From a virus (lineage: Duplodnaviria > Heunggongvirae > Uroviricota > Caudoviricetes), in the IMG/VR virus record IMGVR_UViG_2602041644_000008, positions 1 to 37,809 of that record: a stretch of 37,809 nt of DNA; one strand, written 5' to 3'. A program made the translations under genes and the position numbers. The notes under the pieces were generated by a model. It did no database searches. It worked only from the letters and a program-made list of their open reading frames with translations, and was not told the DNA's origin. Positions 6,041-36,359 of this stretch are shown here, piece after piece. The first letter of the stretch is position 1. Each line of letters begins with the position of its first letter.

Positions 6041-6055
6041 TTACCTTTCAGGTAA
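6041..6055. promoter_or_regulatory. Operator-like palindrome TTACC-TTTCA-GGTAA (copy 1 of 13)
   Basis: Perfect inverted repeat with A/T flanks, intergenic between the tailspike start and the small antirepressor-domain gene. Confidence 0.6.
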
Positions 6056-6092
6056 TTTGCAAAACGTGCTGGATAGCAAACAAATTATTTGC

Positions 6093-6112
6093 TACTGTAT
6101 AAATATACAGTT
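6093..6112. promoter_or_regulatory. LexA (SOS) box
   Basis: TACTGTATAAATATACAGTT versus consensus TACTGTATATATATACAGTA (CTGT-N8-ACAG intact); 21 bp upstream of the ATG at 6133. Confidence 0.65.
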
Positions 6113-6132
6113 ATTGCATGGAGAAGATTAAG

Positions 6133-6390
6133 ATGCAGCAGTATCACTATCCACTGGAAGACGGATTTACCGAAAGGATTCACACGCCGGGAGGCGTCAG
6201 GTCACTGGTGGAGGGATCGCACTTGATGAAATTACTCCGGGATCTCGATAAGGATGGATTTAATGTCGATGGCCCACTTGCCGAACTGACTGCACTGATT
6301 AACTACGTCACCAGCTCACAGATGTCTATGCAGGATCTGCAAACACATCTCGACTATTGTGCCGAACAATTACGAAAACAAACCACATAA
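6133..6390 (+). CDS. Stand-alone antirepressor C-terminal domain protein (candidate SOS-induced antirepressor)
   Basis: SD GGAG upstream of the ATG at 6133; 85 aa; clearly alignable with the C-terminal ~80 aa of the BRO-N antirepressor at 7536-8228 (IHTPGGV..LMKLL..DG..V.GPLAELT...Y......L.DLQTH). Confidence 0.55.
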   Translation: MQQYHYPLEDGFTERIHTPGGVRSLVEGSHLMKLLRDLDKDGFNVDGPLAELTALINYVTSSQMSMQDLQTHLDYCAEQLRKQTT

Positions 6391-6396
6391 AGAAAA

Positions 6397-6412
6397 GGCC
6401 GCTAGAGCGGCC
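6397..6412. terminator. Bidirectional terminator between convergent genes
   Basis: GGCCGC-TAGA-GCGGCC hairpin with T-rich flanks on both strands; overlaps the stop of the minus-strand gene. Confidence 0.5.
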
Positions 6413-7140
6413 TATCGTTTCGCTTTGTGCTCGTCCCAGCACGTTTTGCACCATGCCATTAAGCCATCCGCATTTTGATTATTAGGGTAAAAGCTGGTTC
6501 GTTTTCTGCGGACATTACAAATTGGGCACCACTTCATATGGCGTGTATTCTTTGGACCATCGAGACACCTTGCACACCACTTAGTCAATCCATCTGGATT
6601 TTTTGACGATTTCCTGAATTTTTCATATGGAAGGTTTATTCTGCATCGCAAGCACTGCTTGCTACCACTTGAAACTCTGTTAGCTGATTCTTCTTTTGGC
6701 GGCGATACAGAAGGTATTCTTGCTGGCTCTGATACTGCCTGAGGTGCTTTTTTAGATGACTGAGACGATATGTCATCACCAGGGAATCGTCCATGATATG
6801 CCGGACGCGTTGACACTCCAGGTGGAAGCTCTGCTGTAAATGGCTTTGGCTGAATCAGTTGCCTCTCTTTTGCTAACTCCTGCTGTTTATAATATGTCTG
6901 GATTACCGCACTATCATAAGCAGGAGGTGCGGAAATATTAGGCGCATTACCTCCAGTTTTTTGAAACTGAGTAGAGGTGTGTTCTATCACCTGTGTACGA
7001 TTAATCGTTATCTCCCCATCTTCGGTCTTTATCGTTTTGTTATGATTAACGACCGTACGATCAGAGATCTTAGTCTTGTTCTGGTTGATAACATAAATAA
7101 TCACCGCAACCACACCAACAACTATCCAGAAAACTTCCAT
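6412..7140 (-). CDS. Membrane-anchored protein with two C-terminal zinc-ribbon-like repeats
   Basis: N-terminal TM helix, Pro/Ser-rich linker, then two repeats of C-x2-C ... DGL-x3-WC-x2-C; AT-rich gene; no family recognised. Confidence 0.5.
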   Translation of the reverse strand: MEVFWIVVGVVAVIIYVINQNKTKISDRTVVNHNKTIKTEDGEITINRTQVIEHTSTQFQKTGGNAPNISAPPAYDSAVIQTYYKQQELAKERQLIQPKPFTAELPPGVSTRPAYHGRFPGDDISSQSSKKAPQAVSEPARIPSVSPPKEESANRVSSGSKQCLRCRINLPYEKFRKSSKNPDGLTKWCARCLDGPKNTRHMKWCPICNVRRKRTSFYPNNQNADGLMAWCKTCWDEHKAKR

Positions 7141-7160
7141 TGCTTTTCCTCACAATAACA

Positions 7161-7175
7161 TTACCTTAAAGGTAA
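7161..7175. promoter_or_regulatory. Operator-like palindrome TTACC-TTAAA-GGTAA (copy 2)
   Basis: Perfect inverted repeat 21 bp upstream of the minus-strand gene start (7140). Confidence 0.6.
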
Positions 7176-7253
7176 TATCTTGCTTTCAGGTGATCAAGCG
7201 TTAAACGCAATCAACCAAATAAGGTTGATTTTAATATTTCTTCGCGTTTATCA

Positions 7254-7268
7254 TTACCTTTTAGGTAA
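7254..7268. promoter_or_regulatory. Operator-like palindrome TTACC-TTTTA-GGTAA (copy 3)
   Basis: Perfect inverted repeat at the start of the structured leader upstream of the antirepressor. Confidence 0.6.
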
Positions 7269-7535
7269 ATTTACATCGCACTCCTCTTGTGCCATAGTAA
7301 TTGGGCACTGGCAAAATCCAGTGCCGGGATTGGTCTCCCGGATTACTACAGAGGCACATATGCCGCATAAGCGGTTTTTTTATGTGTAAAGCGCACCTAT
7401 TCTATGGTGAGCTGTGTGGGGGCACCGAAAGGTGCGCCGGGTTCCTTTGTAGCCGGTAAGACCAACTCTGCACAGTTCACCACCATCTGATTGGTCTCAG
7501 CGGTGGTGATTAACCTAACTACAAAGGTGATCGCC

Positions 7536-8228
7536 ATGAATACCAAACCTTCCATCTTTTCCTTTGAGTCATCCTGCCAGATCCGTATGTTCATGATTGA
7601 CGGAGAACCTTGGTTTGTCACCAAAGATGTGTGCAATGCTTTGAATATTGATGTTACACAAGCGAGAAAACTTGATAAAAAAGGCTGGAACAAAAAGGGG
7701 CTGTATTCAATACAGACCCCTGGTGGAATACAAGAACTATCCATCGTTTCAGAATCAGGTCTCTACATCCTTATTCTGCGTTGCAAAGAGGCAATGACAG
7801 AGGGAACGAGAGCGTTCAGATTTCTTGAATGGGTTACAGGTGAGGTTCTTCCTCAGATCCGCCGCACCGGAAGTTACATTAAAAACTCGCTCCCGCAGGA
7901 AGAACGCATAAAGATGGTTGCCGACCAGGTAGCCAACGCCACAGCATCAGCAATGATGCAGGCAATGAAGATAGAGAACAAAACCTACAGTGCCCCACTG
8001 AAGCCCGGCTACCGTAGCCTGATTCATTCTCCGTCTGGTGTTCTCGGCCTGACGGAGAACTCACTGCTGATGAATCTGCTGAACCAGTTACAGGAAGACG
8101 GGCACGATGTATCGGGCGCGGCGGCGGAGCTGACCACCATGTTCTGCTACATCGTCGGTGTGAGCAAATGCCTGCGTGATATCCAGACCCACGCGGAGTA
8201 CATCAACGACAAAGCAGGATTCTTCTGA
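7536..8228 (+). CDS. Antirepressor with N-terminal BRO-N domain and C-terminal antirepressor domain
   Basis: SD AAGGTGA before the ATG at 7536; N-terminal region (IRMFMIDGEPWFVTKDVCNAL ... GLYILILRCKEA ... FRFLEWV) matches the BRO-N fold pattern; C-terminal domain paralogous to the small gene at 6133-6390. Confidence 0.65.
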   Translation: MNTKPSIFSFESSCQIRMFMIDGEPWFVTKDVCNALNIDVTQARKLDKKGWNKKGLYSIQTPGGIQELSIVSESGLYILILRCKEAMTEGTRAFRFLEWVTGEVLPQIRRTGSYIKNSLPQEERIKMVADQVANATASAMMQAMKIENKTYSAPLKPGYRSLIHSPSGVLGLTENSLLMNLLNQLQEDGHDVSGAAAELTTMFCYIVGVSKCLRDIQTHAEYINDKAGFF

Positions 8229-8236
8229 CGGGCGGC

Positions 8237-8258
8237 GGCACAGGGATGTGCCTTTAAA
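8237..8258 (+). terminator. Putative terminator downstream of the antirepressor
   Basis: GGCACA-GGGA-TGTGCC hairpin followed by TTTAAATAATT. Confidence 0.4.
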
Positions 8259-8300
8259 TAATTCTGTACAGATTGCAGACCGGGGGTGAATAGCGTACTA

Positions 8301-8315
8301 TTACCTTAAAGGTAA
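8301..8315. promoter_or_regulatory. Operator-like palindrome TTACC-TTAAA-GGTAA (copy 4) with adjacent promoter
   Basis: Perfect inverted repeat directly after a candidate -35 TTGCAG / 17 bp / -10 TACTAT; 43 bp upstream of the 8358 cassette. Confidence 0.6.
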
Positions 8316-8357
8316 ACCTGTTTTTATTTTATACCTGTAACTTACCGGAGATTAAAG

Positions 8358-8684
8358 ATGACAAAACTTGGATTCGTGATGAGAGGTCCGGTAAGAAGCG
8401 GAACTCATGCAAAGCGTAGCAAGAGTCGTATTTTTACTGGTAAGGTTGTAGCACGTAAATCAGCTATTGGCTCGTTCAATAGTGAAAATGCGGCATTGCG
8501 CCATATTTTTATCAGCACAAAGCCAAGAGCATCCGCTGATGTGCATACAATGTCTATTCCTATCACAAAGAATATCAAGCGGATAAAAAAGCTCTCATCT
8601 GCAGAATCAAAAGAGATATCTTTCCGCCAGCTTAACTCATTAGAAACGCATATGAAGGAAGAGGAATTCGATGTTTTTGAGTGA
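8358..8684 (+). CDS. Small basic protein, putative antitoxin/partner of the YafO-like gene
   Basis: SD GGAG 8 nt upstream; 108 aa, Lys/Arg-rich N-terminus, acidic C-terminus; 14-nt overlap with the downstream gene (translational coupling). No homolog recognised. Confidence 0.4.
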   Translation: MTKLGFVMRGPVRSGTHAKRSKSRIFTGKVVARKSAIGSFNSENAALRHIFISTKPRASADVHTMSIPITKNIKRIKKLSSAESKEISFRQLNSLETHMKEEEFDVFE

Positions 8685-9183
8685 GTATAGCGGGAAGGTT
8701 ATACCTACTGGTGAGTTTAAAACTGATGACTTTCTGATTTCGCTAAAAGATGCTTTTAAACAACACTGGCGTCATGGTCATCATCCTGATCTGGGAAAAG
8801 ATACTCTTTTTGAAAGACCAGACGAAGTATTAGGCTTCCATCTCAGAAAGGTTCATGTCAATATTGGTGAATATGCATCATATTCATACTCATGTACTGA
8901 ACAGTGTTGGGATGAGTGGTCATATGGATTGATTGATGAACAAGGAAATTACAGGCCAAAACCAACCAGTAACGCATATCTCATATATGCAGTCAATGAA
9001 ATAAGAGATGCAGCCTTACTAGCTTATTGGGACCCGCCCGCACACACCAAAGCTAACGCAAAAGTTTGGATGGATTCCGTATTGAATTTCACAAAATTAT
9101 TTCATGAACGAACTAATACAGCTCCACTTAGTAGAAATGTTTATCCGTGGGATTATTCGTACAAATCCAAAAAGCCTGCATAG
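8671..9183 (+). CDS. YafO-family toxin-like protein (putative ribosome-dependent mRNA interferase)
   Basis: Strong SD (GGAAGAGGAA); segments LGKDTLFE, LRKVHVNI and YLIYAVNE...ALLAYWDPPAHTKA resemble recalled YafO motifs (GRDALYD, ERVAHIHL, HLVYCQG...WLLIAILKPEPHKLA). Recall-based; needs HMM confirmation. Confidence 0.45.
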   Translation: MFLSEYSGKVIPTGEFKTDDFLISLKDAFKQHWRHGHHPDLGKDTLFERPDEVLGFHLRKVHVNIGEYASYSYSCTEQCWDEWSYGLIDEQGNYRPKPTSNAYLIYAVNEIRDAALLAYWDPPAHTKANAKVWMDSVLNFTKLFHERTNTAPLSRNVYPWDYSYKSKKPA

Positions 9184-9264
9184 TAGTTTTTTATGGACGA
9201 AACAAAAGTCAGTGCTACACTCATTGACGCCACATTGAGGTGGCTTATAGATGGAAATTTCACA

Positions 9265-9426
9265 ATGAAAAAAGCATTTGCTGCACTGTTCGTTTTGTTG
9301 TCTCTGGTAGCTTCAACTCAGGCCTTTGCCGGTCGTTGTCAGCACGACAGCGATACTGCCGCTGACGGCTCCCGCTGCGGTGGGCGTTCTGCGGATTCCC
9401 GCCCGGGCGGCGGTGGCATTCGTTAA
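9265..9426 (+). CDS. Small secreted Cys-containing peptide
   Basis: MKKAFAALFVLLSLVASTQAFA signal peptide, then ~31-aa Gly/Arg/Asp-rich mature peptide with two Cys; weak RBS. Confidence 0.3.
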   Translation: MKKAFAALFVLLSLVASTQAFAGRCQHDSDTAADGSRCGGRSADSRPGGGGIR

Positions 9427-9432
9427 AAACAA

Positions 9433-9448
9433 GGCCGCGAAAGCGGCC
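9433..9448. terminator. Bidirectional terminator
   Basis: GGCCGC-GAAA-GCGGCC hairpin with T-rich tracts on both strands; between convergent genes. Confidence 0.55.
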
Positions 9449-9455
9449 TGTTTGA

Positions 9456-10307
9456 TCACTGTGCAGTTTTCGCTGATCGATTTTCAGCTCTAAATTCAAG
9501 AACCGTTTCAATATTTCTTTCCTTCAGCATATCAATAACATTTTTATTCACTTGACTATCACTGGTTAATAACTGGTAAACGTTGCTTCTCTCTTTATCA
9601 GAGTTTTCTTTAACAGCTGCTTTGCATGCCAAATGCTTATTGAAATTTTCTACATCGCTAGTACAGGAATTTACGGCTGCTGATGAAATATCAGACGCTG
9701 AAGAAACACCATCATCCAAACGTTTTATAGCATTTTCTATACATGAGTTAAGGGAATAAACGACAACTGAGCGATACCCTTCAGACGCACACCATTCTAA
9801 ATTTCTTGAAGGATCGAGTGGTTTTACTTCGCTGGATTGAATTAACTTGTCAAAAACTGACTTATATTCAATCTGTTTTTTATCTATAGCCCATACTTCA
9901 GTAGCTGATTTATAATTCCCCGTATGCCTATTAACATCAAATCCATGTTTTATAAGCAAATCTGCCCATGAAAGATTTATTGATTCATTGTTATGAGGCC
10001 ATTTTCCTGTCAGAACCGCCCCCATAGACCCCATATATCCGCCATATGATGGTATAGCACCATGGCTCAGTAACTTCTCAGCAACCACAGGGCAATTAAT
10101 TACATAAGAGGCGTAAAGCCCATTCCATAAAGCCCCTCTATAGTAATCGCCACGATTAGGTTCTTTTAAGTCGATAGCCTTTGATAATTGTTCACACGTT
10201 TTGCATGCATCAAAGTTATCCTTATTGCATTGCAATGAACTGGCAGCTGTAGGATTTACAGAGACTATTGAAAGCACTATGCCAAAAAACAAATTTATTT
10301 TTTTCAT
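9456..10307 (-). CDS. Secreted Cys-rich protein of unknown function
   Basis: Sec-type signal peptide; about ten Cys; AT-rich; start overlaps the stop of the upstream internal virion gene, so it is in the late operon. Confidence 0.5.
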   Translation of the reverse strand: MKKINLFFGIVLSIVSVNPTAASSLQCNKDNFDACKTCEQLSKAIDLKEPNRGDYYRGALWNGLYASYVINCPVVAEKLLSHGAIPSYGGYMGSMGAVLTGKWPHNNESINLSWADLLIKHGFDVNRHTGNYKSATEVWAIDKKQIEYKSVFDKLIQSSEVKPLDPSRNLEWCASEGYRSVVVYSLNSCIENAIKRLDDGVSSASDISSAAVNSCTSDVENFNKHLACKAAVKENSDKERSNVYQLLTSDSQVNKNVIDMLKERNIETVLEFRAENRSAKTAQ

Positions 10308-10308
10308 C

Positions 10309-17484: not shown

Positions 17485-19955
17485 CAGAATCCCCCAACAG
17501 TAAGGCGAGGAATAACGGCAAGAACAGACAGCGGCAACGGATCAAGCTGACGGATTTTTACACGTCCGTTTTTGCCCCAGTTACTGTCCAGTTTCACTTC
17601 TACTTTTCCGGTAGCATCATCAACAGGATCATCGTAGAACTCGAATTCACGCTGTGGATATTCGTACCATTTACCGCCGGGCGTAGTCGCCCAGATGCCG
17701 CGACTGGCATTCACAACCAGAGTAACGGAGGGGATCACCTGTTTTTTGTCCAGCAGCGTTTCCTGTCCGTTAATGTTGATATCCAGTGTTTCGAATTCAG
17801 CAGTTATTGGCAGGCCGATGTGCACTACAGCCCCCGGAGATTCCAGCGTGACGGCACCTCCGGAAACCACTTTCTGTGGTTCCACGTTCGCATCAGAGAG
17901 AATGTTTACGGTCTGGCCTTCAAGATGAGACAGGCCTCCAAATGTCCGGCGCGCCATCTGCCAGTTCGTGGTGGCCACATTCCTGAGGGATGGCGGGACG
18001 TTCCTGTTAGCACGAACCACTACAGCGGTGTTGCTGGTTACAGAAATAATGTCGCAACGTAATTCTTTTGACACTTCATCGCCAGTATCAGGATCAGTTC
18101 CGGTATAAGGGAACTGTAGTTGCGCGCCGACATCACTACTGGTGAAGTACGCACCACCAGAAACACTGATTGTATATTCCGCATGGTAATCCCATTCACC
18201 AGAACCACCAGTGATGGTCATCGTTCTGTCAGACGTATTTCTTCCATCATAGCTAAGGCCAGAATCAACAAAGAAAGCATCTTCATCGCTGGTAAATAAA
18301 CGGCTGGACAGTCGCTCGATGTATCTCACTGTTTGCCCGTTAACGGTTCGGTTAACGACGAAATACACCGCATCTTCATTGCCTTCGCTGATACTGCATG
18401 TGCTTTCATATTTTCCGGTACTGGATTGTGGTGCCCATGCAAAAACCTGCTGATCACGCAAATAGGTCATCACCAGTAATTTACCGTCATCACGAATGCA
18501 GAAGGCACTGGAGTAAGGGACAATCGAGAAGCACCAGTCAACAATGCTGTGCTTCTGAAAAAGATGATTGGCAAGGATGGTCAGGTCGTTCCCCTGATAG
18601 CCGTCAACATCGAATGAGTAGGCCAGATCACGGACAACGCTGCCTTTCTCCTGGACGAACAGAGCAATATTCGCCACGGCAATTGGCGGGACGTTGCTTG
18701 AGCCATTTGATCCCTGAGAGCTGAATGCAAATGATGATGGGGTTAACACTTTGTTCTGGTCGCCGGTGATGACGTACTCACCTCCGGAAGTCAGCGCCAC
18801 CAGAGAACCAACATCAATCAGGTGACGGATCTCATTAACCTGACGCCCGGCATAGGTGTAGATAATTCTGTCGTCATCCTGCGTAGGATTGCTTTTGCCA
18901 AAATCCTTATAATCCCCGGTACGGCTGGCCCAGATAGTCTGAGGGAACGCAGTCGATGCGGCGAAGTAAAGACGTTGTTGATAATAAACAACAGTGCCAG
19001 GATAACCATTAACACTGTTCCAGGCATATTTAGCCCATTTATAGCTGGCATTATCCTCGCCAACGACCTGCGAAGGGATATAGGAAATCACCTCGGCAGT
19101 TGCAGTAGTTCCATTTGCAGCAGTGATACGGGCAATGCCAAAACCACTGTGCAGATATTCCCACTCAATGCCGGTATCATCATCACCGGATCCGCCCCAG
19201 CCATCCCATGATGTGCCTTCTGTATGCGAAGGGCGCAAAGTGCCTGTTTTACCTGCTGTAACAGCGCGATAGTAGTTACTGTCTGCACGGCGAACATCGT
19301 CAATCGACGTACTCTTACTGGTTTCCCATACCGGCACTGAATCCACTGCAGGCTGTTCCAGATAGAACAATTTGCCTACCTGCTCCGAGCCAAAAATAGA
19401 GGCGCTTGCCGTTAACGTAATTGTCCCGGTGCTGGCGCTGGCATAAACCGTCACTGACTCGTCAATATTGATATCTTCAAATGGTCCGTTCTTCGTTACC
19501 ACATCAACCAGTTGCCAGTTGTCATGCGCATAGCGACGCAACTCTTTCGGCGGGTATGCCGGATGAACCAGCGTAAGCACGTCTGCGCTTTGCGTGAATT
19601 TAATTCGGAACAGATCGGCTTCAGTATATGGCGTGGCAATTTCATAAATAACATTGCTGCTGTTCAGCACCAACGCACCATCTTTGATAACGCGCATGTA
19701 CTGGTGTCCGAACTCCAGAGCATAGGTCTGAACCGTCGAGAACTGGAACGGGATCAGGCGGCATTTCCGATTTTGGTATTTGGCGGCACCGACAAAACGC
19801 GTACCAGGTCGATTCTCAACGCCGCCATACTGCCGCACGATAAAGTTATCGCACTTGCGCAATGCTACCTGGTACTTCGCCATGTCAATACGCCCGTACA
19901 ACGACGGTCCAATCTCACCACCGGCAAAACTGGGCTGGATCCAACTGATAGCCAT
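17484..19955 (-). CDS. Tail tubular protein B (T7 gp12-like nozzle)
   Basis: 823 aa (T7 gp12 is ~794 aa) directly after a ~200-aa tubular-A-like gene; beta-rich composition. Confidence 0.6.
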   Translation of the reverse strand: MAISWIQPSFAGGEIGPSLYGRIDMAKYQVALRKCDNFIVRQYGGVENRPGTRFVGAAKYQNRKCRLIPFQFSTVQTYALEFGHQYMRVIKDGALVLNSSNVIYEIATPYTEADLFRIKFTQSADVLTLVHPAYPPKELRRYAHDNWQLVDVVTKNGPFEDINIDESVTVYASASTGTITLTASASIFGSEQVGKLFYLEQPAVDSVPVWETSKSTSIDDVRRADSNYYRAVTAGKTGTLRPSHTEGTSWDGWGGSGDDDTGIEWEYLHSGFGIARITAANGTTATAEVISYIPSQVVGEDNASYKWAKYAWNSVNGYPGTVVYYQQRLYFAASTAFPQTIWASRTGDYKDFGKSNPTQDDDRIIYTYAGRQVNEIRHLIDVGSLVALTSGGEYVITGDQNKVLTPSSFAFSSQGSNGSSNVPPIAVANIALFVQEKGSVVRDLAYSFDVDGYQGNDLTILANHLFQKHSIVDWCFSIVPYSSAFCIRDDGKLLVMTYLRDQQVFAWAPQSSTGKYESTCSISEGNEDAVYFVVNRTVNGQTVRYIERLSSRLFTSDEDAFFVDSGLSYDGRNTSDRTMTITGGSGEWDYHAEYTISVSGGAYFTSSDVGAQLQFPYTGTDPDTGDEVSKELRCDIISVTSNTAVVVRANRNVPPSLRNVATTNWQMARRTFGGLSHLEGQTVNILSDANVEPQKVVSGGAVTLESPGAVVHIGLPITAEFETLDININGQETLLDKKQVIPSVTLVVNASRGIWATTPGGKWYEYPQREFEFYDDPVDDATGKVEVKLDSNWGKNGRVKIRQLDPLPLSVLAVIPRLTVGGF

Positions 19956-25344: not shown

Positions 25345-25433
25345 ATCAATGACTCCGTACGCAATTAAATTATTACCAATTTAACCACATATGATTTATT
25401 TATCGTAGATAATTGACATTTAACGCACGAGTT

Positions 25434-25448
25434 ATTACCTTTCAGGTA
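25434..25448. promoter_or_regulatory. Operator-like palindrome TTACC-TTTCA-GGTAA (copy 5)
   Basis: Perfect inverted repeat ~90 bp upstream of the portal-side operon; TTGACA hexamer 17 bp upstream on the plus strand. Confidence 0.55.
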
Positions 25449-25771
25449 AGCAAAGAGTTCATTCCGGTTATTAACCTGACTGGCTTGTCGTTAAATTGAA
25501 CAGGTGGAGTGAGCTTTTATTTTGAGCAGTACGGCGTATGGCACATGCGCCGATAGCGGTCTGGATACGTTTAAGGGGTACCCTCCCTTGCTCGGGCAAA
25601 CGAACCAGGTAGCCGGAATGTGCAAGTCGAGCGGTTTTATTCCGCGCACGGGGATTCACCATCCCGGCGATTCGGTGTGACGCCTCGGAAGAGACGAGGG
25701 TACAACGATGAGAGCATTTATGGAGCCGCGACAAAGTGTGGCGCCTTAACAGGCTAAGTGCTCTCAGCGTT

Positions 25772-25848
25772 GTGGCATTAGCTCAGTTGGACAGAGCAAC
25801 CGCCTTCTAAGCGGTTGGTTGCAGGTTCGAATCCTGCATGCCACGCCA
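25772..25848 (+). tRNA. tRNA-Arg (anticodon UCU)
   Basis: 77 nt; acceptor stem GTGGCAT/ATGCCAC, D-stem GCTC/GAGC, anticodon stem ACCGC/GCGGT with loop CTTCTAA (anticodon TCT), T-arm GCAGG-TTCGAAT-CCTGC, discriminator G and encoded CCA. Confidence 0.85.
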
Positions 25849-27969: not shown

Positions 27970-28562
27970 TGATTACCATCCTGACGTTCTTTGAGTCGCT
28001 TCCTGGCTGCCGCTATGCGATCAGCAATTGTCACATTCACATTAACATCCAGGCGTTCTTTGAACGCGTTGACATCAACATGCTTACCAATCAGCTCAAG
28101 GTTCTTCACCTTGTCAGGCCATTTAATTTTTTTGAGGATTGTCTCTATCGAATCCTCGTTCATGTTCATGATGGTCGATGACAGATCAAAGCCACTAAGC
28201 GTAGTGCGCCAGATTTTCGGCCACTCACGGATTGGTTTAAGGCTCCCATCGTCGTTGAGGATGTCGATCACGTCCATCTGGTCGATCTCCACCAGGCGCA
28301 TGAGAACGTAATCAGCACTGACGCGCATTCGTTTGTTGCGCTCCTCCATCAACTCGGCAATCCGTTTTTGAATGCGTTCATCGCGCATCATGACACTGGC
28401 TTTAACTGCCGCTGTATTTGGGGAGAATCCTGCGTTAATCGCTGCCTGAGTTTGGTTTTCAGGCGTTTTGATGTATGACTGGCAATAAGCCTCCTGCATT
28501 GTTGTTAGTGGCTTAAATTGCGTTGATTTGCGTTTATAGGTTTTAGGTTCAGCAGGCATCAT
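27966..28562 (-). CDS. Terminase small subunit
   Basis: Helical DNA-binding N-terminal region and oligomerisation-like C-terminus; start set at ATG-ATG (28562/28559) after SD GGTGG; the upstream TTG-initiated extension in the ORF track is low-complexity. Confidence 0.6.
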   Translation of the reverse strand: MMPAEPKTYKRKSTQFKPLTTMQEAYCQSYIKTPENQTQAAINAGFSPNTAAVKASVMMRDERIQKRIAELMEERNKRMRVSADYVLMRLVEIDQMDVIDILNDDGSLKPIREWPKIWRTTLSGFDLSSTIMNMNEDSIETILKKIKWPDKVKNLELIGKHVDVNAFKERLDVNVNVTIADRIAAARKRLKERQDGNQ

Positions 28563-28602
28563 AACCACCGTGGTAATAGTTACCGTTGTGGTAATAGTAC
28601 CA

Positions 28603-28631
28603 TGCAAAATAAAGCCGCCATAGTTGGCGGC
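28603..28631 (-). terminator. Terminator immediately upstream of terS (tR-prime-like)
   Basis: On the minus strand GCCGCCA-ACTA-TGGCGGC followed by TTTATTTTG. Confidence 0.45.
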
Positions 28632-28672
28632 AGTATTCAAAATCCATCAAATTCATCATGCATAATCTACTC

Positions 28673-30717: not shown

Positions 30718-31212
30718 TCACTCTCCTTTGATGCGAATGCCAGTGGTACTCATTCTCCTGATTTCCCAGAGCACACGAGGAACACCACCGTTTCCGACCG
30801 GATCGCGCTTACTCCGCATGGCGACGCTTGATTCCGCCCAGCTTTTTCTTGGAGGAAGCTCTTTCACACGAACAAAACCAGCTGCGCGAAGAGATGCTCC
30901 TGATTCATCTGCCTGGGTGTACGTAATACAACGTTGATAACCCATAGCCTTTGCTGCCCGCCAGACAGCACCATAAAGCGCGCTGTTAGCGTTGCGTTCT
31001 CCTGTGGTACATGTGCGATTTACTTCAAGCGTTAATCCATCGTCCAAATGTCGTGCAACAGGTCGACCAGCTGTCGCCACACCTATCAATTCTCCGGCAT
31101 TATTTCTCAGACCAATGCTGAATTTATGCCCCACTGGTGGTTTATTGTGTCGGTGGTGCTGTGCGATAAATTCCTGCGCCGCTTTCAGCGTTATAGGTGA
31201 AATGACCATCAC
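30718..31212 (-). CDS. Hypothetical nin-region protein
   Basis: 164-aa ORF with overlapping start/stop junctions; no family recognised. Confidence 0.4.
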   Translation of the reverse strand: MMVISPITLKAAQEFIAQHHRHNKPPVGHKFSIGLRNNAGELIGVATAGRPVARHLDDGLTLEVNRTCTTGERNANSALYGAVWRAAKAMGYQRCITYTQADESGASLRAAGFVRVKELPPRKSWAESSVAMRSKRDPVGNGGVPRVLWEIRRMSTTGIRIKGE

Positions 31213-31901
31213 TCAGACTCCTCCTTGATGCCAGCGGCGCGGGAATCATTCCATCGCTTTACTTCTTCACGAATTACGTCAATGCATTCTTTCGAATCCA
31301 TTAGGTAATCTTCATCAAAAAGACGTTCCTGTTCGTTTTCTATCGCAACAATGATTGCTTCAACTAATTTTTGTGCCTGAGAATCACTTTCTAACTCTGC
31401 AATGCGCTTCTCTGCGGCTTCCAACTTCTCGCGCATATCGTCAACGTACTCGACCAGAGAACCGCCAGCAGGAATTTCGCACTCCTCGACCAGTTGGAAG
31501 TAGATATCAGCTGCGGCCCGTGTGTTGCTATGCCTAGCGTCGCCCATCTCACCTTCACGAAGAGCATCGCGTTCGGCGGTAAGATTGGCTATTTTGCTGT
31601 CTTTGCCTTCCAGCTCAACGCGCAGCTTCCCTACCGTTAGCGCAATATCCTCGTTCTCCTGATCGCGGGATTTGATGTATTGCTGGTTCCTTTCCCGTTC
31701 ATCCAGTAGTGCCAAAGCAACCTTTGGATTAAAGGCAGCAATAAATTCAGCGTTGTTTTTCAGAACGTGTTGCGCAATGGCCTGACCACTTAGTCGGACC
31801 TTATAACCACGTGCGCCACGGTGTGGTTTATATGAGTCCCAGTCTCCCCACGTTGCTTTTTCTGCCTTTTCACGCAGTGCCTGATAGTTAATGTTGGTCA
31901 T
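31209..31901 (-). CDS. Coiled-coil phage protein (Ea22-like?)
   Basis: N-terminus INYQALREKAEKATWGDW followed by long charged coiled-coil. Confidence 0.4.
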   Translation of the reverse strand: MTNINYQALREKAEKATWGDWDSYKPHRGARGYKVRLSGQAIAQHVLKNNAEFIAAFNPKVALALLDERERNQQYIKSRDQENEDIALTVGKLRVELEGKDSKIANLTAERDALREGEMGDARHSNTRAAADIYFQLVEECEIPAGGSLVEYVDDMREKLEAAEKRIAELESDSQAQKLVEAIIVAIENEQERLFDEDYLMDSKECIDVIREEVKRWNDSRAAGIKEESE

Positions 31902-31902
31902 A

Positions 31903-32202
31903 TCACATCACCCTGAAGCCGTTGCATTTACGTAAAAAATCGCAGATATAGCCCTTCATTTTTTCGTGCCAATCTCGATCATTCCCATTGCACCAACCAT
32001 CAGGTGGAGTCCAGTTTTCTATCAGAGCAGCCATTTTCTTTGCTTTCGCCGGAGTAGCTGTTGCGGTATCGCAGTAATGACGAGTGTCAACCAACGTATC
32101 CATACCATCGATATCAAGTACGCAAAACCATGTGTGATTCGGAATTCCTACAGGTGGTATTTGTTGCCCACGTCGACGTTTATCAATAAGATATACACTC
32201 AC
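31903..32202 (-). CDS. Hypothetical protein
   Basis: 99-aa ORF in operon context. Confidence 0.35.
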   Translation of the reverse strand: MSVYLIDKRRRGQQIPPVGIPNHTWFCVLDIDGMDTLVDTRHYCDTATATPAKAKKMAALIENWTPPDGWCNGNDRDWHEKMKGYICDFLRKCNGFRVM

Positions 32203-32768
32203 TGGTTACCTCCTTTGCGAAGCTCTGCGGCGATATCTTCGAGAACGCCATCAGAGAATGAGCGGTCAAAATCGCCTTCCGGCGCATTAGCCATAAACTC
32301 AGTAGAGGTAAGAATCATCCGGGCAATATCCGCGGCGTTCTTCGCAGTATCATCAATAAAACCAGCTTCCCAGGCAGCCAGCATTCTGTTCGCCACAAAG
32401 TAAGCGCCCTCCTTGCGTGCTTCAGTCTTCACTTCAGCTAGGAAAGCATCGGTGGCTGGAATGGGCTTTTGTGGTGATATAGCAATGCGAATTGTCTCAA
32501 GGTCTGGAGCTGTTTCCGCTGTTGGCACCTTGATATAACCCGTCTGCACCCCATTCATGATGAACCTGCGACGGTCATCACATATCGCCTTAAGCCCCGC
32601 ATTCTCCGCTGCCAGCGCATTAGCACGCACCAGTTGCACTTCCAGTTGCGTTGCCAAATCGCTGATCAGCTTTGTCACACTGCGCATATCAACGGCACCA
32701 CATTCTGCTTTCAGTTCCGAAGCCATCTCATGCCCGGCGGCAACTAACCCTTTGATATTACTTTCCAT
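32199..32768 (-). CDS. Hypothetical protein
   Basis: 189-aa ORF in operon context. Confidence 0.4.
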   Translation of the reverse strand: MESNIKGLVAAGHEMASELKAECGAVDMRSVTKLISDLATQLEVQLVRANALAAENAGLKAICDDRRRFIMNGVQTGYIKVPTAETAPDLETIRIAISPQKPIPATDAFLAEVKTEARKEGAYFVANRMLAAWEAGFIDDTAKNAADIARMILTSTEFMANAPEGDFDRSFSDGVLEDIAAELRKGGNQ

Positions 32769-32829
32769 CTTTACCCTCGCTTATCCACATAACTTATTGA
32801 TTACACTGATAACTAAAAAGATCGTCGAT

Positions 32830-33174
32830 TCAGAACTCTTCGATGTTCCAGCCACCACCTGCTTTCTTTGGCTTAACCGTTACCCCGATGATTCGGAACG
32901 GATACTGATCTGCGGCGACTTTGGTTTTCACCCTGGCGTCGTCGGTCCAGAAACCTTTCACTTCGTGCAGTTCCATCTCGCCGGTGGCGAGCATCACAGC
33001 AAAATCGGGCGTATAGAACGTGTTGTCAGCTAACCGCAACTTGATACCCTCGAATCGATACCAGGCGATTTCCCCTGCACGTTTACGCTGCTCAAGGTGC
33101 TGGCAATACGCAGATTCTGTTTTGTTCATCTGGCCTGTTTTGAGTCGACCAAGAGCCTGCATCTGTTTTCTCAT
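32830..33174 (-). CDS. DUF1064-like protein (PD-(D/E)XK fold likely)
   Basis: Motif YTPDFAV...GEMELHEVKG; first gene after the replication module. Confidence 0.4.
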   Translation of the reverse strand: MRKQMQALGRLKTGQMNKTESAYCQHLEQRKRAGEIAWYRFEGIKLRLADNTFYTPDFAVMLATGEMELHEVKGFWTDDARVKTKVAADQYPFRIIGVTVKPKKAGGGWNIEEF

Positions 33175-33177
33175 GAT

Positions 33178-33192
33178 TTACCCATGAGGTAA
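33178..33192. promoter_or_regulatory. Operator-like palindrome TTACC-CATGA-GGTAA (copy 6)
   Basis: Perfect inverted repeat 4-18 nt upstream of the 33174 start codon. Confidence 0.55.
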
Positions 33193-33239
33193 TTAAAAAC
33201 CACATAAGACACGAAATCAATAGATCTTAGAACATTTTA

Positions 33240-33254
33240 TTACCTAGCAGGTAA
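33240..33254. promoter_or_regulatory. Operator-like palindrome TTACC-TAGCA-GGTAA (copy 7)
   Basis: Perfect inverted repeat with A/T flanks, between the P gene end and the nin region. Confidence 0.55.
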
Positions 33255-33291
33255 TTATCAAGACGTAAAAAAATGCGCTATCGCGCTGGTA

Positions 33292-34092
33292 TTACTTGAT
33301 AAATCCTGCCGCCTTTCCCCGCCTGTATTCCTCCATCAGCCACTGCGCCGGTGTTATTCCCCCCAGGGTAGCGGCGTTAGGCATACACCCGAAACTTCGC
33401 CCTGGTGGATGGTAAACGCCTCTCCCTGTGTCCGGAGGCGTACTCATGGGTTCTGGCTTTGCCTGTATGCTGATCACCGGATCGGGTATCTGCTGTCCGG
33501 AAGCCACCTTTTTCGCCCAATCATCAAGCAGCCTGCGCGCGTGTTTCTCAACCTCAATCTCGCTAAGCTGGCGCTGATACATTGCACGGCGGGTATCACA
33601 TACGACCCAGTACATAACCGGATGCCGCCACGGGAATCTTTCGGGACCACCAGGATATAAACTTTTTTCCTTGCTGTACCGGTGAAACTCCGCCATCACA
33701 TCGTCAATGGTGACGCCAAGAACCATCTTGCTGTCTTTACACCACTTGATAAATTGCCCTGGCGACGGCCAGAACGGAGATTCACTGGCGCGGGCGTGGC
33801 GCATACCAGCAGAAACCTGTTCACGGGTTCGGATCCCCCCTTCGGCAAACGCAGCAATCCACTGCTGTTTTGCAGCAACTTCCTGCTCTGGCGTCTTCAG
33901 GTTGGTTACCACTGCCGCCGGAAACAGTTGTTTCAACTGTTTGAAAAGGGCATCAACAAGCCTCTCTGCTGACATGTTCACTACGTTGTCATTGTTGGTG
34001 TACTGATGCTCATAACCTGACATGCGAGAAAGGGCTTCTCCGTCACGGTTTTGTATCGCGGTAAAAACGTTGTTCACAAGAAATCCTCCCAT
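33292..34092 (-). CDS. Replication protein P-like (helicase loader)
   Basis: Extended similarity to recalled lambda P: FPAAVVTNL...QWIAAFAEGGIRTREQVSAGMRHARASESPFWPSPGQFIKWCKD versus lambda FPASLANRD...QWVLAFRENGITTMEQVNAGMRVARRQNRPFLPSPGQFVAWCRE. Confidence 0.75.
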   Translation of the reverse strand: MGGFLVNNVFTAIQNRDGEALSRMSGYEHQYTNNDNVVNMSAERLVDALFKQLKQLFPAAVVTNLKTPEQEVAAKQQWIAAFAEGGIRTREQVSAGMRHARASESPFWPSPGQFIKWCKDSKMVLGVTIDDVMAEFHRYSKEKSLYPGGPERFPWRHPVMYWVVCDTRRAMYQRQLSEIEVEKHARRLLDDWAKKVASGQQIPDPVISIQAKPEPMSTPPDTGRGVYHPPGRSFGCMPNAATLGGITPAQWLMEEYRRGKAAGFIK

Positions 34093-34889
34093 GCTTCAGG
34101 GCTGTTCCAGTGCGGAACGTTGTTATCAGGTAATGTTGATTGCTTCTGTCTGCTAATCTGCAGCCGCCTTGCCAGCTTCTGCTCCCACTGTGCCTGATGG
34201 TATGCCCTACCCTCAGCCATCCAGTAAATTCTGAACTCTGCAAGTTCCTGTGCCGTTGGCAGACTGTCCAGGTAGATCCCCTGCAATGAGCTTTTCCGAA
34301 GAAAGTCATCTGATGGCTGCCATTGTTCATGCATGACAAATTTGCCTAATTGCCCTGGCCCACCAGGAGGAACAAAGTTATTCATCACGGCGTTGTTTGC
34401 GCCGGGGTCATGATGCACAGAATCCCCGTTTTTTGTCCTGCTCTCCCTCTCTTGGTTAAATGACTGGTTATATGACTGGTTCTGGATCCCGTTTTTGGGA
34501 TCATTCAACATCCCGTTTTTGGGATCATTCAACATCCCGTTTTTGGGTATATTCCCGTTTTCGGGAACATTACCGTTTTCGGGTTCATTACCCCCTTCCC
34601 GGTTGCCTTTAATGTTCCCGTTTTTGGTTATATTAAGAGAGAAAACCCGCACTCTTTTCGTCGCTCCCTTTCTCTCTCCGGTATCTGAAATAAGCCCCAT
34701 TTTCATGAGCGATATAAGCCCGGCCTGCACGGTTTTTTTATTCAGGCAAGTGTCTTTAACGAGGCGTTCTATGCTGGGGTAGCAGAGGTTATATTCATCG
34801 GCTCTGTCAGCCATCGAGAGCAGTATGAGCTTTAATGACGAGCTACCTGGATCTGTCTCCCAGGCCCAATCTGTTGCATGTCTGCTCAT
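34074..34889 (-). CDS. Replication initiator, lambda O-like, with internal origin iterons
   Basis: SD GGAG before the ATG; N-terminal winged-helix-like region; repetitive peptide (NGNVPENGNIPKNGMLNDPKNGMLNDPKNG) encoded by the iteron array; directly upstream of P. Confidence 0.6.
   Translation of the reverse strand: MSRHATDWAWETDPGSSSLKLILLSMADRADEYNLCYPSIERLVKDTCLNKKTVQAGLISLMKMGLISDTGERKGATKRVRVFSLNITKNGNIKGNREGGNEPENGNVPENGNIPKNGMLNDPKNGMLNDPKNGIQNQSYNQSFNQERESRTKNGDSVHHDPGANNAVMNNFVPPGGPGQLGKFVMHEQWQPSDDFLRKSSLQGIYLDSLPTAQELAEFRIYWMAEGRAYHQAQWEQKLARRLQISRQKQSTLPDNNVPHWNSPEAWEDFL
34486..34631. repeat. Origin iteron array inside the O-like gene
   Basis: Four good and two degenerate copies of ATCCCGTTTTTGGGAT-like dyad units at 18-24 bp spacing. 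Confidence 0.6.
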
Positions 34890-34904
34890 GATTAATCTCC
34901 GCTA

Positions 34905-35105
34905 TCAGCTTGAATGTTGTGGGGAGGAATTAATCATGATCTGCTTAATCTCTGCCCTGATACGACGGTTTGATTCCATGGTGCACTCAACACAGTGTCC
35001 GTTGTAAACCCAGCGTTCACTGTCATGTCCGTGCTTACATGGTTTTCCGGTGTAGTAGCGTTTAAGTCCGCGCTTTGCGGCATCAATACGTGTAATGATT
35101 TCCAT
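34905..35105 (-). CDS. Small Cys/His-containing protein at the cII position (function unknown)
   Basis: ORF between cro-like gene and O; start ambiguous (35174, 35135 or 35105); motif CKHGH...C-x2-C. Confidence 0.3.
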   Translation of the reverse strand: MEIITRIDAAKRGLKRYYTGKPCKHGHDSERWVYNGHCVECTMESNRRIRAEIKQIMINSSPQHSS

Positions 35106-35185
35106 GGTAAGCCCTGTTATTAGTATTGGGATTACGGTCATTTTGTGCTGACACAAAAAAAAGATCAACCACATTTGGTTATTTA

Positions 35186-35200
35186 TTACCTTTGAGGTAC
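35186..35200. promoter_or_regulatory. Operator-like site TTACC-TTTGA-GGTAC (copy 8, one mismatch)
   Basis: Directly downstream (minus sense) of the cro terminator and upstream of the replication genes. Confidence 0.45.
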
Positions 35201-35209
35201 GAATAGATA

Positions 35210-35233
35210 TGAAAAGACCGCCGGGTGGCGGTC
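35210..35233 (-). terminator. tR1-like terminator downstream of cro
   Basis: On the minus strand GACCGCC-ACCC-GGCGGTC followed by TTTTCAT. Confidence 0.55.
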
Positions 35234-35255
35234 TACAGAGGGTTGTAGCTGGATA

Positions 35256-35486
35256 TCATGAGTAGAAGAAGTATGCCAGTTCTGCTTTTGAGTGCAGCCA
35301 TTGTCTTGATTTACAGGCTTTAAAAAGCCCATTCATCAATACCTTACCTGGCATTTTGCGCTTACCTGTTAAGTGAGTCTGGATATAGTGACTCGTCGTT
35401 CCGGCTTCCTGTGCGAAGGCTTCACGCTCATCCGGAGTAAGTGCAAGCCAGTGCTTTTTGAAATCGAAATGTCCGTTATCGCTCAT
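35256..35486 (-). CDS. Cro-like transcriptional regulator
   Basis: 76 aa, HTH-like segment; divergent from the repressor gene across an operator-rich region. Confidence 0.55.
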   Translation of the reverse strand: MSDNGHFDFKKHWLALTPDEREAFAQEAGTTSHYIQTHLTGKRKMPGKVLMNGLFKACKSRQWLHSKAELAYFFYS

Positions 35487-35522
35487 AGCTATTGCCTGAT
35501 ATTTATTTCAGATAATAAATAT

Positions 35523-35537
35523 TCACCTATAAGGTAA
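35523..35537. promoter_or_regulatory. Operator TCACC-TATAA-GGTAA (OR-like site 1, copy 9)
   Basis: In the cro/repressor intergenic region; lies in the spacer of a candidate cro promoter (minus strand TTGATT / 17 bp / GAATAT). Confidence 0.55.
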
Positions 35538-35553
35538 CAAAAATCAAGGATAG

Positions 35554-35568
35554 TTACCCATGAGGTGC
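35554..35568. promoter_or_regulatory. Operator TTACC-CATGA-GGTGC (OR-like site 2, copy 10, imperfect)
   Basis: Adjacent (2-bp gap) to site 3. Confidence 0.45.
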
Positions 35569-35570
35569 AT

Positions 35571-35585
35571 TTACCTGTTGGGTAA
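35571..35585. promoter_or_regulatory. Operator TTACC-TGTTG-GGTAA (OR-like site 3, copy 11)
   Basis: Perfect inverted repeat 56 bp upstream of the repressor start codon. Confidence 0.55.
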
Positions 35586-35640
35586 TATTGCTTTAAATTG
35601 AATCATCTTCTGATTCAGATATGAGGCGATTTTCCAGAAA

Positions 35641-36225
35641 ATGAAAAGTATCCAGGACGTCCGCAGGCAAAATCTCAACGACTTGATCGACCGTGAATTC
35701 AATGGTGTTCAGACGCGGATGGCTGAAAAACTTGGAACTCAGGCAAATCTGGTAAACCGCTGGGCTCTTGGCAAGAAGGTTATCGGCGACCAGGTTGCGC
35801 GAAAAATTGAAGCTGCCGCCAATAAACCCCGTAACTGGCTTGATATCGATCGCTCGCTTTCTCAGGAAGGTTTTCAGCCTGTCGGACCAAGCGACATTGG
35901 TCAACTGGCGGCTCACAACCTGGAACGCTGGATGAGCGAAAGCCGCGACCTTTCAACGCAGGGAAAACTTCACCGCGCATCCGGCGTCGCCCAGGTAACA
36001 ATCAGCCGCCTGTTAAACAATGAGGTCAGCGTTTCCATTTCCACCCTGGAGAATGTTGCATCCGCATTTGGGCGTCACGGATATGAATTACTGATTCACC
36101 CGCACGACCCCGCGACTATCAACTATGACCGCTCGCGCTACGCATTGTTACCTGAAACAGAGAAGGCAAAGATCGAAAGTTACATTGAATTTGTCATCAA
36201 CCAGAACGAAAAAAACAAACAATAA
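35641..36225 (+). CDS. Prophage repressor candidate, tandem HTH (XRE-type), no autocleavage domain
   Basis: 194 aa with two HTH-like segments (QTRMAEKLGTQANLVNRWALG and SGVAQVTISRLLNNEVSVSISTLENVA); no Ala-Gly/Ser-Lys protease signature seen; divergent from cro; followed by a terminator. Confidence 0.55.
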   Translation: MKSIQDVRRQNLNDLIDREFNGVQTRMAEKLGTQANLVNRWALGKKVIGDQVARKIEAAANKPRNWLDIDRSLSQEGFQPVGPSDIGQLAAHNLERWMSESRDLSTQGKLHRASGVAQVTISRLLNNEVSVSISTLENVASAFGRHGYELLIHPHDPATINYDRSRYALLPETEKAKIESYIEFVINQNEKNKQ

Positions 36226-36247
36226 AATCATATTTTTCAGTAAGTAA

Positions 36248-36272
36248 GCCGCCTTCTGGCGGCTTTTTTATT
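36248..36272 (+). terminator. Rho-independent terminator after the repressor gene
   Basis: GCCGCC-TTCT-GGCGGC followed by TTTTTTATT. Confidence 0.65.
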
Positions 36273-36282
36273 GCCTATTTGA

Positions 36283-36297
36283 TTACCTAACGGGTAA
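36283..36297. promoter_or_regulatory. Operator TTACC-TAACG-GGTAA (OL-like site, copy 12)
   Basis: Perfect inverted repeat with A/T flanks just after the repressor terminator. Confidence 0.55.
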
Positions 36298-36344
36298 TTT
36301 TTTTAACTCATATCTATTGACATCAAACCAGATACGCATAATTA

Positions 36345-36359
36345 TTACCTCAACGGTAA
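36345..36359. promoter_or_regulatory. Operator TTACC-TCAAC-GGTAA (OL-like site, copy 13) overlapping pL-like promoter
   Basis: TTGACA at 36317-36322, AT-rich -10 region, operator at the predicted start site; 20 nt upstream of the first early-left ORF. Confidence 0.55.

Follow-up and report, generated by a model that had tools for sequence, protein, structure and literature searches.

The stretch of DNA analysed here (37,809 nucleotides, IMG/VR virus record IMGVR_UViG_2602041644_000008; hereafter the window) carries, scattered through its intergenic regions, copies of a palindrome, ATTACC-N5-GGTAAT, which are probably operators of Rep, the repressor encoded by the same prophage. By megablast the window belongs to the phiV10/epsilon15 group, genus Uetakevirus, with 96-98% identity to phiV10, TL-2011b, ZX5 and EC.W1-9 across large stretches and 77-81% to epsilon15 and Tyrion. 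Since its first 1.1 kb are Escherichia coli yfgH-yfgI, and since E. coli strain 315 has a yfgH/yfgI flank matching that of the window at 99.9% and goes on past the window's right end into guaA, the integrase gene and the remaining prophage, the window is, as judged from these junctions, a prophage at the E. coli guaA site, reversed relative to the published phage maps; only the int-to-recT end of the prophage is missing from it.

A sequence-only reading of the window had listed thirteen of the palindromes, ten of them as perfect. All are real: nine of the ten perfect coordinates are exact and the tenth, 25434, is off by one (25435), and the three sites given as degenerate, 35186, 35523 and 35554, have one, one and two mismatches in the 10-bp core. 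The count was nonetheless too low, a pair just before terS (28580 and 28562) having been missed. The total is 15: 11 with a perfect TTACC-N5-GGTAA core, starting at 6041, 7161, 7254, 8301, 25435, 28580, 33178, 33240, 35571, 36283 and 36345, and four degenerate, the fourth being 28562, with one core mismatch. In their 17-bp form, without assigned strand, they are as follows.

6040..6056, operator ATTACCTTTCAGGTAAT, between ant and the tailspike gene; epsilon15 has an annotated repressor site at the syntenic place, 19895-19911.
7160..7176, operator ATTACCTTAAAGGTAAT; the phrog_6762 gene (6412-7140, minus strand) has its ATG 20 bp downstream.
7253..7269, operator ATTACCTTTTAGGTAAA, at the start of the isrK/C4/Bro-N antirepressor module.
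8300..8316, operator ATTACCTTAAAGGTAAA, before an accessory cassette of phrog_5933, a weakly YafO-like protein and a small membrane protein.
25434..25450, operator ATTACCTTTCAGGTAAG, in the gap that separates gp3/portal (minus strand) from tRNA-Arg/gp66-like (plus strand); its syntenic counterpart in epsilon15 is annotated at 2931-2947.
28561..28577, second terS operator ATAACCACCGTGGTAAT, located 3 bp ahead of the gene's ATG; kept in phiV10, Tyrion and epsilon15.
28579..28595, first terS operator GTTACCGTTGTGGTAAT, with a perfect core; the syntenic epsilon15 site is annotated at 12-27.
33177..33193, operator TTTACCCATGAGGTAAT, the proximal one at the nin-like promoter; a resolvase-like gene has its ATG 3 bp further on.
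33239..33255, operator ATTACCTAGCAGGTAAT, the distal one at the nin-like promoter; in epsilon15 the syntenic site is annotated at 35906-35922.
35185..35201, operator ATTACCTTTGAGGTACG, degenerate, between the cro terminator and the replication genes.
35522..35538, OR1-like operator TTCACCTATAAGGTAAC, inside the -35/-10 spacer of the predicted cro-like promoter.
35553..35569, OR2-like operator GTTACCCATGAGGTGCA, the weakest copy.
35570..35586, OR3-like operator TTTACCTGTTGGGTAAT, abutting OR2, 17 bp centre to centre.
36282..36298, distal operator of the left cluster (OL) ATTACCTAACGGGTAAT, following the rep terminator 36246-36265.
36344..36360, proximal OL operator ATTACCTCAACGGTAAC, overlapping the -10 of the predicted promoter pL.

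The palindrome is a real feature of this DNA, far from chance. The 11 perfect cores compare with 0.01 expected (dinucleotide shuffles: mean 0.01, maximum 1), and the 17-bp form gives 16 matches at up to two mismatches against 1.26 expected. All 15 sites fall in the non-coding 8.9% of the window, as defined by a curated gene list, which bears out the statement that every copy is intergenic; matches to the 17-bp form at up to two mismatches in coding DNA (2721, 13719, 30045) are few, at chance level, and the unrelated temperate enterobacterial phage ZF40, taken as a negative control, has no site at two mismatches or fewer. The terS pair, a tandem just upstream of the gene, counts as intergenic only if terS starts at ATG 28558, the start annotated in epsilon15, SPC32H and Tyrion. 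The phiV10 record has a longer terS, with a TTG start and 224 amino acids (DQ126339.2 positions 41-130), which would make the two sites coding; in the window this start would span 28558-28640 and thus a terminator, a conserved extended -10 and both operators, and we consider it probably wrong, since three relatives start after the sites and the terminator and the extended -10 lie upstream. A sixteenth conserved copy ATTACCTTAAAGGTATA, with two mismatches, lies beyond the window: in strain 315 it is found 42 bp upstream of the integrase ATG (L007 5473-5489), and an int-proximal two-mismatch copy likewise stands about 40-60 bp before int in epsilon15, SPC32H, phiV10 and Tyrion.

The same motif is enriched in relatives, where SPC32H has 18 matches against 0.93 expected and Klebsiella phage BUCT711 has 14 against 0.76, and epsilon15, phiV10 and Tyrion each carry multiple copies. 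In all five of these phages the copies occupy equivalent positions: terS is preceded by a tandem pair, gp3 and the lysis cassette by one site each, and another lies between ant and the tailspike gene; a pair follows rep, the gap from rep to cro holds three sites, the cro terminator is followed by one, and the nin-like genes are preceded by a pair. The OR2-like site, weakest in the window, has strong positional homologues at epsilon15 33357 and SPC32H 34406, the latter a perfect palindrome. In three-way alignments of the window, Tyrion and epsilon15 over six intergenic regions, 110 of the 120 half-site columns (92%) are invariant, as against 368 of the 689 other intergenic columns (53%; Fisher p = 2e-17); the half-sites are conserved, the 5-bp spacer and the flanks variable.

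The epsilon15 GenBank record (AY150271.2) contains seven features labelled 'protein_bind / repressor / lysogeny', whose sequences are this ATTACC-N5-GGTAAT 17-mer. They stand before terS, gp3/portal and the nin-like region, in the gap between gp19 (the Ant homologue) and the tailspike gene, and, three of them, beside the repressor gene. Since the record already annotates the same 17-mer, the operator regulon is not new: the dispersed set is already known, and the epsilon15-type sites are seen again here in a phiV10-type E. coli prophage. For this phage group the idea of a dispersed repressor regulon thus goes back to that record (Kropinski et al. 2007, Virology 369:234). A full-text literature search for the half-site strings returned nothing relevant. 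What our analysis adds to the concept is a corrected inventory, the placement of operators on +1 at six predicted promoters, a 62-bp pairing rule, the wiring of accessory units and of a second antirepressor, and a second dyad.

Two regulatory genes diverge across the triple site.

35641..36225, plus strand, rep, encoding a 194-aa repressor, by homology the most likely binder of the motif.
35256..35486, minus strand, gene for a Cro-like regulator of 76 aa, which diverges from rep; its product matches phrog_35 'transcriptional repressor' (E 2.6e-12).

Rep is 100% identical to phiV10 p40 and ZX5 ORF21. It matches the crystallised Rep of SPC32H (PDB 5D50) over its whole length with E 4e-42, residues 1-190 aligning to 2-197 of 5D50_A, at an identity to the epsilon15 and SPC32H proteins of only about 42%; across five genus members identity ranges from 43 to 78%, with 43-44% for the distant branch. 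An N-terminal segment, NLVNRW..G.K.IG...AR, is invariant among these five, its NLVNRW resembling a recognition helix, and this invariant segment matches the invariant half-site. Only helix-turn-helix-type Pfam matches were found in Rep, with no Peptidase_S24 domain, and its DNA-binding domain has a weak YdaS/Cro-like match. The cI of Pseudomonas phage PseuP_224 shares with Rep only the N-terminal 65 residues (39% identity to Rep residues 4-68), yet five TTACC-N4-GGTAA sites surround its gene, three just upstream and two just downstream (L009 2922-2974 and 3797-3836); this form, with a spacer one base shorter than in the window, has 8 matches there against 1.02 expected. As PseuP_224 shares only the N-terminus and still carries the half-site, the TTACC half-site travels with the Rep-type DNA-binding domain, which independently supports Rep as the binder.

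SPC32H Rep attaches to palindromic DNA in tetrameric form, each site being held by two DNA-binding domains that come from different dimers, and tetrameric Ant breaks the Rep-DNA complex (PMC9638917). It has DNA-binding, dimerisation and tetramerisation domains, with two dimerisation-domain pairs about 100 angstroms apart, and its mechanism of repression "has not been extensively characterized" (PMC9986798). Overexpression of ZX5 ORF21 abolished free phage and lowered holin and endolysin mRNA by more than 99.9% (PMC9782041), a phenotype compatible with direct and with indirect effects. Taken together, homology, conservation and synteny lead us to put the probability that the palindromes are operators of the prophage's own repressor, Rep, at roughly 0.85.

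The genes and sites that would make this repressor inducible are also present.

6133..6390, plus strand, small antirepressor gene ant, its product about 87% identical to SPC32H Ant (5D50 chain E; E 1.4e-47).
6093..6112, without assigned strand, near-consensus LexA box TACTGTATAAATATACAGTT, with CTG-N10-CAG at 6095.
7305-7381, plus strand, isrK, an Hfq-binding small RNA (Rfam 74.7 bits).
7400-7487, plus strand, C4 antisense RNA (Rfam RF01695, 78.2 bits; gathering score 45).
7491-8228, plus strand, open reading frame for a Bro-N::Ant fusion antirepressor, with a Bro-N domain and matches to PHROG anti-repressor families.

Ant is encoded opposite the tailspike gene, as in SPC32H/epsilon15-type relatives, and the LexA box, which precedes the ant ATG (6133) by 20 bp and is shared by all five phages aligned, probably overlaps the real ant promoter. 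The SPC32H Rep/Ant/LexA switch is said to have been described by Kim & Ryu 2013 (J Virol 87:11775) and Kim et al. 2016 (PNAS 113:E2480; PDB 5D50, 5D4Z). The C-terminal 78 residues of the Bro-N::Ant protein are 42% identical to small Ant (E 6e-17). Its open reading frame stands directly downstream of the isrK and C4 tandem, behind the operator 7253-7269, and the region has about 93% DNA identity to the anti-repressor region of ZX5 that holds ORF4, a gene that promotes lytic growth (PMC9782041). The prophage thus seems to have two antirepressors under different control, one under LexA and the other under Rep together with C4/isrK. With no S24 domain in Rep and the Ant/LexA route in place, induction would not be lambda-like.

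All promoters discussed below are consensus predictions, with the nominal +1 set 7 nt after the -10 and the operator centre given relative to +1.

36317-36345, pL, TTGACA-17-AATTAT; operators at 0 and -62.
33192-33220, minus strand, nin-like promoter (P-nin), CTATTGAtt-17-TTTAAT, conserved; operators at 0 and -62.
28594-28602, minus strand, terS promoter, conserved extended -10 TGnTACTAT; operators at 0 and +18.
8300 cassette promoter, -10 TACTAT; operator at 0.
7225-7254, promoter-like site; operator 7253-7269 at 0, overlapping -10 and +1.
7177-7204, minus strand, weak phrog_6762 promoter; operator at +2.
tRNA-Arg/gp66-like promoter, plus strand, conserved TTGACA-17-TACCTT; operator at -6.
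cro promoter (P-cro); OR1 inside the -35/-10 spacer.
Putative rep promoter, TTTACC-17-TTAAAT; OR2 at -44 and OR3 at -27, OR3 overlapping it, in a lambda-like arrangement.
35140-35168, minus strand, post-cro replication promoter, conserved TTGATC-17-CAAAAT; operator at -60.
Putative ant promoter; operator at -57.
Tailspike promoter; operator at -67 to -70.
Putative gp3 late promoter; operator at -80.

Operators thus lie on the predicted core promoter or +1 at pL, P-nin, P-cro, the terS promoter and four accessory promoters, and upstream only at the replication, ant, tailspike and gp3 promoters. Where an operator is centred on +1, the -10 hexamer usually shares its final AT with the start of ATTACC, as in the 8300 cassette. 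The operator 7253-7269 also abuts the -35 of a further promoter-like sequence, 7270-7298, from which transcripts would nominally begin at 7305, where isrK has its 5' end, and the extended -10 and operator pair of terS are preceded by a terminator at 28614-28631. The lambda-like layouts that had been read from the sequence are found as described: three sites lie between rep and cro, with OR1 in the predicted P-cro spacer and OR2 and OR3 beside the putative rep promoter, and, after the repressor gene, the terminator 36246-36265 is followed by the TTGACA promoter-like sequence 36317-36345 with its pair of operators. In the nin region the best promoter found by the prediction tool, TTGATA-16-TAAAAT, was rejected, its -35 not being kept in relatives, unlike the downstream CTATTGA-17-TTwAAT.

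At pL and at P-nin a constant 62 bp separates the centres of the two operators in the window, epsilon15, SPC32H, phiV10 and Tyrion, and in BUCT711 the distances are 62 and 63 bp; no indel separates paired operators among the aligned phages, though the intervening sequence has diverged. The fixed distance and the lack of indels suggest that one Rep tetramer holds both sites on the same face of the DNA and encloses the promoter between them. If so, 62 bp being about six helical turns, the promoter-enclosing loop would be very tight. No description of the 62-bp pairing or of the +1 placement was found in the accessible literature.

These arrangements can be assembled into a working scheme. Rep, which has its helix-turn-helix DNA-binding domain at the N-terminus, dimerises through its middle domain and tetramerises and binds Ant through its C-terminal domain, would in the lysogen occupy the three-site OR, at which OR1 lies inside the predicted cro promoter spacer and OR2 and OR3, near -44 and -27 relative to the putative rep promoter, may serve autoregulation. 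It would clamp pL and the nin-like promoter through the operators on +1 and 62 bp upstream, sit on the tandem terS pair, at +1 and +19 of the extended -10 promoter, and on the +1/-10 of the four accessory promoters (isrK/C4/Bro-N, the YafO-like cassette, phrog_6762 and tRNA-Arg/gp66-like), and bind upstream only at the ant/tailspike, gp3/portal and replication promoters. Upon DNA damage LexA would leave its box over the ant promoter, and Ant would bind the C-terminal domain of Rep and strip Rep from the DNA, so that all units would be released at once; Bro-N::Ant, itself repressed by Rep, would be among them and would reinforce the switch as a feed-forward loop.

Several points weigh against this reading. 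That Rep binds the 17-mer in this prophage is something we infer; the 17-mer is equated with mapped operators of epsilon15 and SPC32H through GenBank annotation, and the epsilon15 'protein_bind' features may themselves be predictions. Promoter-like matches as a class are not enriched over shuffles. The operators of the tailspike, gp3 and replication units lie 57-80 bp upstream of the predicted start, where direct repression is unexplained, and the window's lysis cassette has no operator. Of the proposal that a single repressor silences accessory, replication and late units directly, the part that stands, on homology and conservation, is one repressor with many operators; given the upstream-only operators and the operator-free lysis cassette, direct silencing of late units is borne out only in part. 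Lastly, the Cro-like protein could share the sites.

This last point has a stronger form, in which the Cro-like 76-aa protein is the main binder, or binds equally with Rep as Cro does with CI in lambda, and the dispersed copies make up a network for down-regulation in the lytic phase rather than for silencing in the lysogen. Its gene has a helix-turn-helix product, diverges from rep across the triple site and always co-occurs with Rep and the motif, and its conservation (78% identity to the epsilon15 and SPC32H homologues) is far above the 42% of Rep against the same phages, paralleling the invariant motif. The N-terminal recognition segment of Rep is invariant, however; the epsilon15 annotators gave the sites to the repressor; and in PseuP_224, where Cro-like homology was looked at only in outline, the TTACC half-site accompanies the Rep-type N-terminal domain. 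The distribution of the two proteins cannot separate them, both being confined to the same 37 records. We regard the Cro-like protein as an improbable main or equal reader; sites common to it and Rep would not contradict the assignment of the operators to Rep. A second alternative accepts a repressor and questions its mode of action: many copies might be elongation roadblocks, 'stoperators', against read-through into terS, the nin-like, replication and accessory genes. The positions of 28561 and 28579 after the terminator 28614-28631, of 35185 after the cro terminator, and of 33177 and 7160 three and twenty bp before an ATG would suit such a role, but no site is found inside a long operon, the symmetry of the sites excludes the orientation dependence of L5 stoperators, and most sites share two bases with a conserved -10 end, which fits promoter occlusion. 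Roadblocks as the general explanation are unlikely, though less so than a network read by the Cro-like protein, and the two modes, occlusion and roadblock, could coexist.

Hardest to credit, and in our judgement very improbable, is a non-repressor role, in which the palindrome would be an activator or architectural site, read by a host IHF- or Fis-like protein or a phage late activator, or part of a duplicated promoter module with no dedicated binder. The distal copies, at -57 to -80, do lie at typical upstream-activator positions, the epsilon15 record annotates IHF sites beside two copies, and pL and P-nin share CTATTGA...ATTACC. Against this, half-sites conserved at 92% around a variable spacer and between variable flanks are the signature of a dimeric sequence reader, the proximal copies over +1 or the spacer are incompatible with activation, the motif is unlike the IHF consensus, and the candidate late regulator, phrog_536, is present in ZF40, which lacks the motif. 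Operators of Rep remain the reading we prefer.

A second symmetric element, AACCA-N4-TGGTT (for example AACCATATATGGTT), has 10 matches in the window at up to one mismatch, against 1.19 expected.

3139..3152, without assigned strand, second dyad AACCATTTGTGGTT, upstream of the lysis cassette.
6001..6014, without assigned strand, second dyad AACCATATATGGAT, upstream of the tailspike gene.
25383..25396, without assigned strand, second dyad AACCACATATGATT, upstream of gp3/portal.
35167..35180, without assigned strand, second dyad AACCACATTTGGTT, past the cro terminator; it overlaps the putative replication promoter at its -35.
7213-7226, a further copy.
33198-33208 and 36326-36336, half-sites.

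It overlaps the -35 or spacer of the promoters predicted for the lysis, tailspike, gp3/portal and replication units, and is kept at the same places in epsilon15, where it is unannotated, and in SPC32H, phiV10 and Tyrion. The copy at 25383-25396 belongs to a block of about 60 bp that is almost invariant between the window and epsilon15; that at 3139-3152 is followed on the minus strand, after 7 nt, by CATGAT (TATAAT in phiV10). The dyad-bearing promoters are those with an upstream-only Rep operator or, in the case of the window's lysis promoter, with none. The region 3093-3620, from the tailspike gene to the lysis cassette, is replaced relative to phiV10, epsilon15, SPC32H and Tyrion: it has neither an O-antigen acetylase gene nor a Rep operator, and retains a GGGTAAC half-site and the second dyad. 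The lack of an operator at the window's lysis cassette thus comes from replacement of the stretch in which relatives have it. No constant operator-to-dyad spacing, which might point to a composite site, was found, the spacings being 19.5, 40.5, 44 and 52.5 bp. Of the binders considered, the phrog_536 regulator, encoded just before terS, is disfavoured, on weak evidence, because ZF40 has a 68%-identical homologue but no dyad (1 match against 1.46 expected), and by eye none of the IHF, DnaA and LexA consensus sequences fits. A combined scheme, in which a Rep tetramer clamps pL and the nin-like promoter across 62 bp and the second dyad is read by a candidate such as the Cro-like protein or Rep itself through its XRE-like middle domain, we put forward tentatively, as possible rather than likely.

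Some neighbouring features may be recorded. A tRNA-Arg gene (anticodon UCU; 25772-25848, plus strand) separates the portal-side operon from terL. Upstream of it is the TTGACA promoter-like site that overlaps operator 25434, and SPC32H has a tRNA-Arg annotated at the equivalent place. Within the DnaT-like replication gene, three adjoining tandem-repeat arrays of periods 12, 24 and 18 (34453-34592), the 24-bp unit ATCCCGTTTTTGGGATCATTCAAC being present in 2.6 copies at 100% identity, are probably origin iterons, as in lambda O. Two other dyads lie in the immunity region: CTGATATTTATTTCAG (35496-35511; CTG-N10-CAG, weakly LexA-like), between the cro promoter and the cro ATG, kept in phiV10 and Tyrion and not in epsilon15, and TGAATCA-N5-TGATTCA (35598-35616), in the rep leader.

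The concept of dispersed repressor operators had already been made for epsilon15; its use here lies in annotation, since Rep operators, and with them promoters and immunity group, can readily be marked by rule in the many phiV10/epsilon15-like prophages that E. coli, Salmonella, Enterobacter and Klebsiella carry, across which the half-site is kept although Rep has diverged to about 42% identity. Operator-bearing promoters are also of practical interest, phiV10 being a reporter and detection phage for O157:H7. The picture is of a temperate podovirus in which one antirepressor-sensitive repressor is apparently wired to terminase, accessory, replication and antirepressor genes, and with such wiring induction may be nearer to an all-at-once event than to a cascade.

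The nearest known systems are those of epsilon15 and SPC32H, of the same genus, which have the same 17-mer at the same syntenic positions and homologous Rep, Ant and LexA box; the window adds operators at accessory units (7160, 7253, 8300) and lacks that of the lysis cassette, and the epsilon15 record leaves the OR triple, the second nin site and the int-proximal copy unannotated. The comparison with lambda that had been drawn from the sequence holds for operator layout: repressor and cro genes diverge across three operators, one of them in the cro promoter spacer, and a second cluster stands at the early leftward promoter after the repressor terminator, with an oligomeric and possibly bridging repressor. 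It fails for induction, since Rep, unlike lambda CI, has no S24 autocleavage domain and would be relieved by an antirepressor through the Ant/LexA route; the DNA-binding domain of Rep is moreover of a different sequence family, and the operators extend across at least nine transcription units rather than two, in pairs 62 bp apart rather than adjacent. In mycobacteriophage L5 the gp71 stoperators are 13-bp, asymmetric, orientation-dependent sites, about 30 in number, that act on elongation. The window resembles L5 in having one immunity repressor with sites scattered in short intergenic gaps, some of them downstream of promoters, and differs in that its sites are symmetric 17-mers, mostly on predicted core promoters, and in that the proteins are unrelated; the likeness suggested to mycobacteriophages, for these palindromic, intergenic sites, is thus one of analogy only. 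Like the immI region of P1/P7, in which C4 accompanies icd/ant, and like isrK-anrP of Salmonella Gifsy-1, the window has isrK and C4 upstream of a Bro-N antirepressor, a post-transcriptional brake of the same kind; unlike them, it has this module under a Rep operator, and its antirepressor ends in an SPC32H-type Ant domain.

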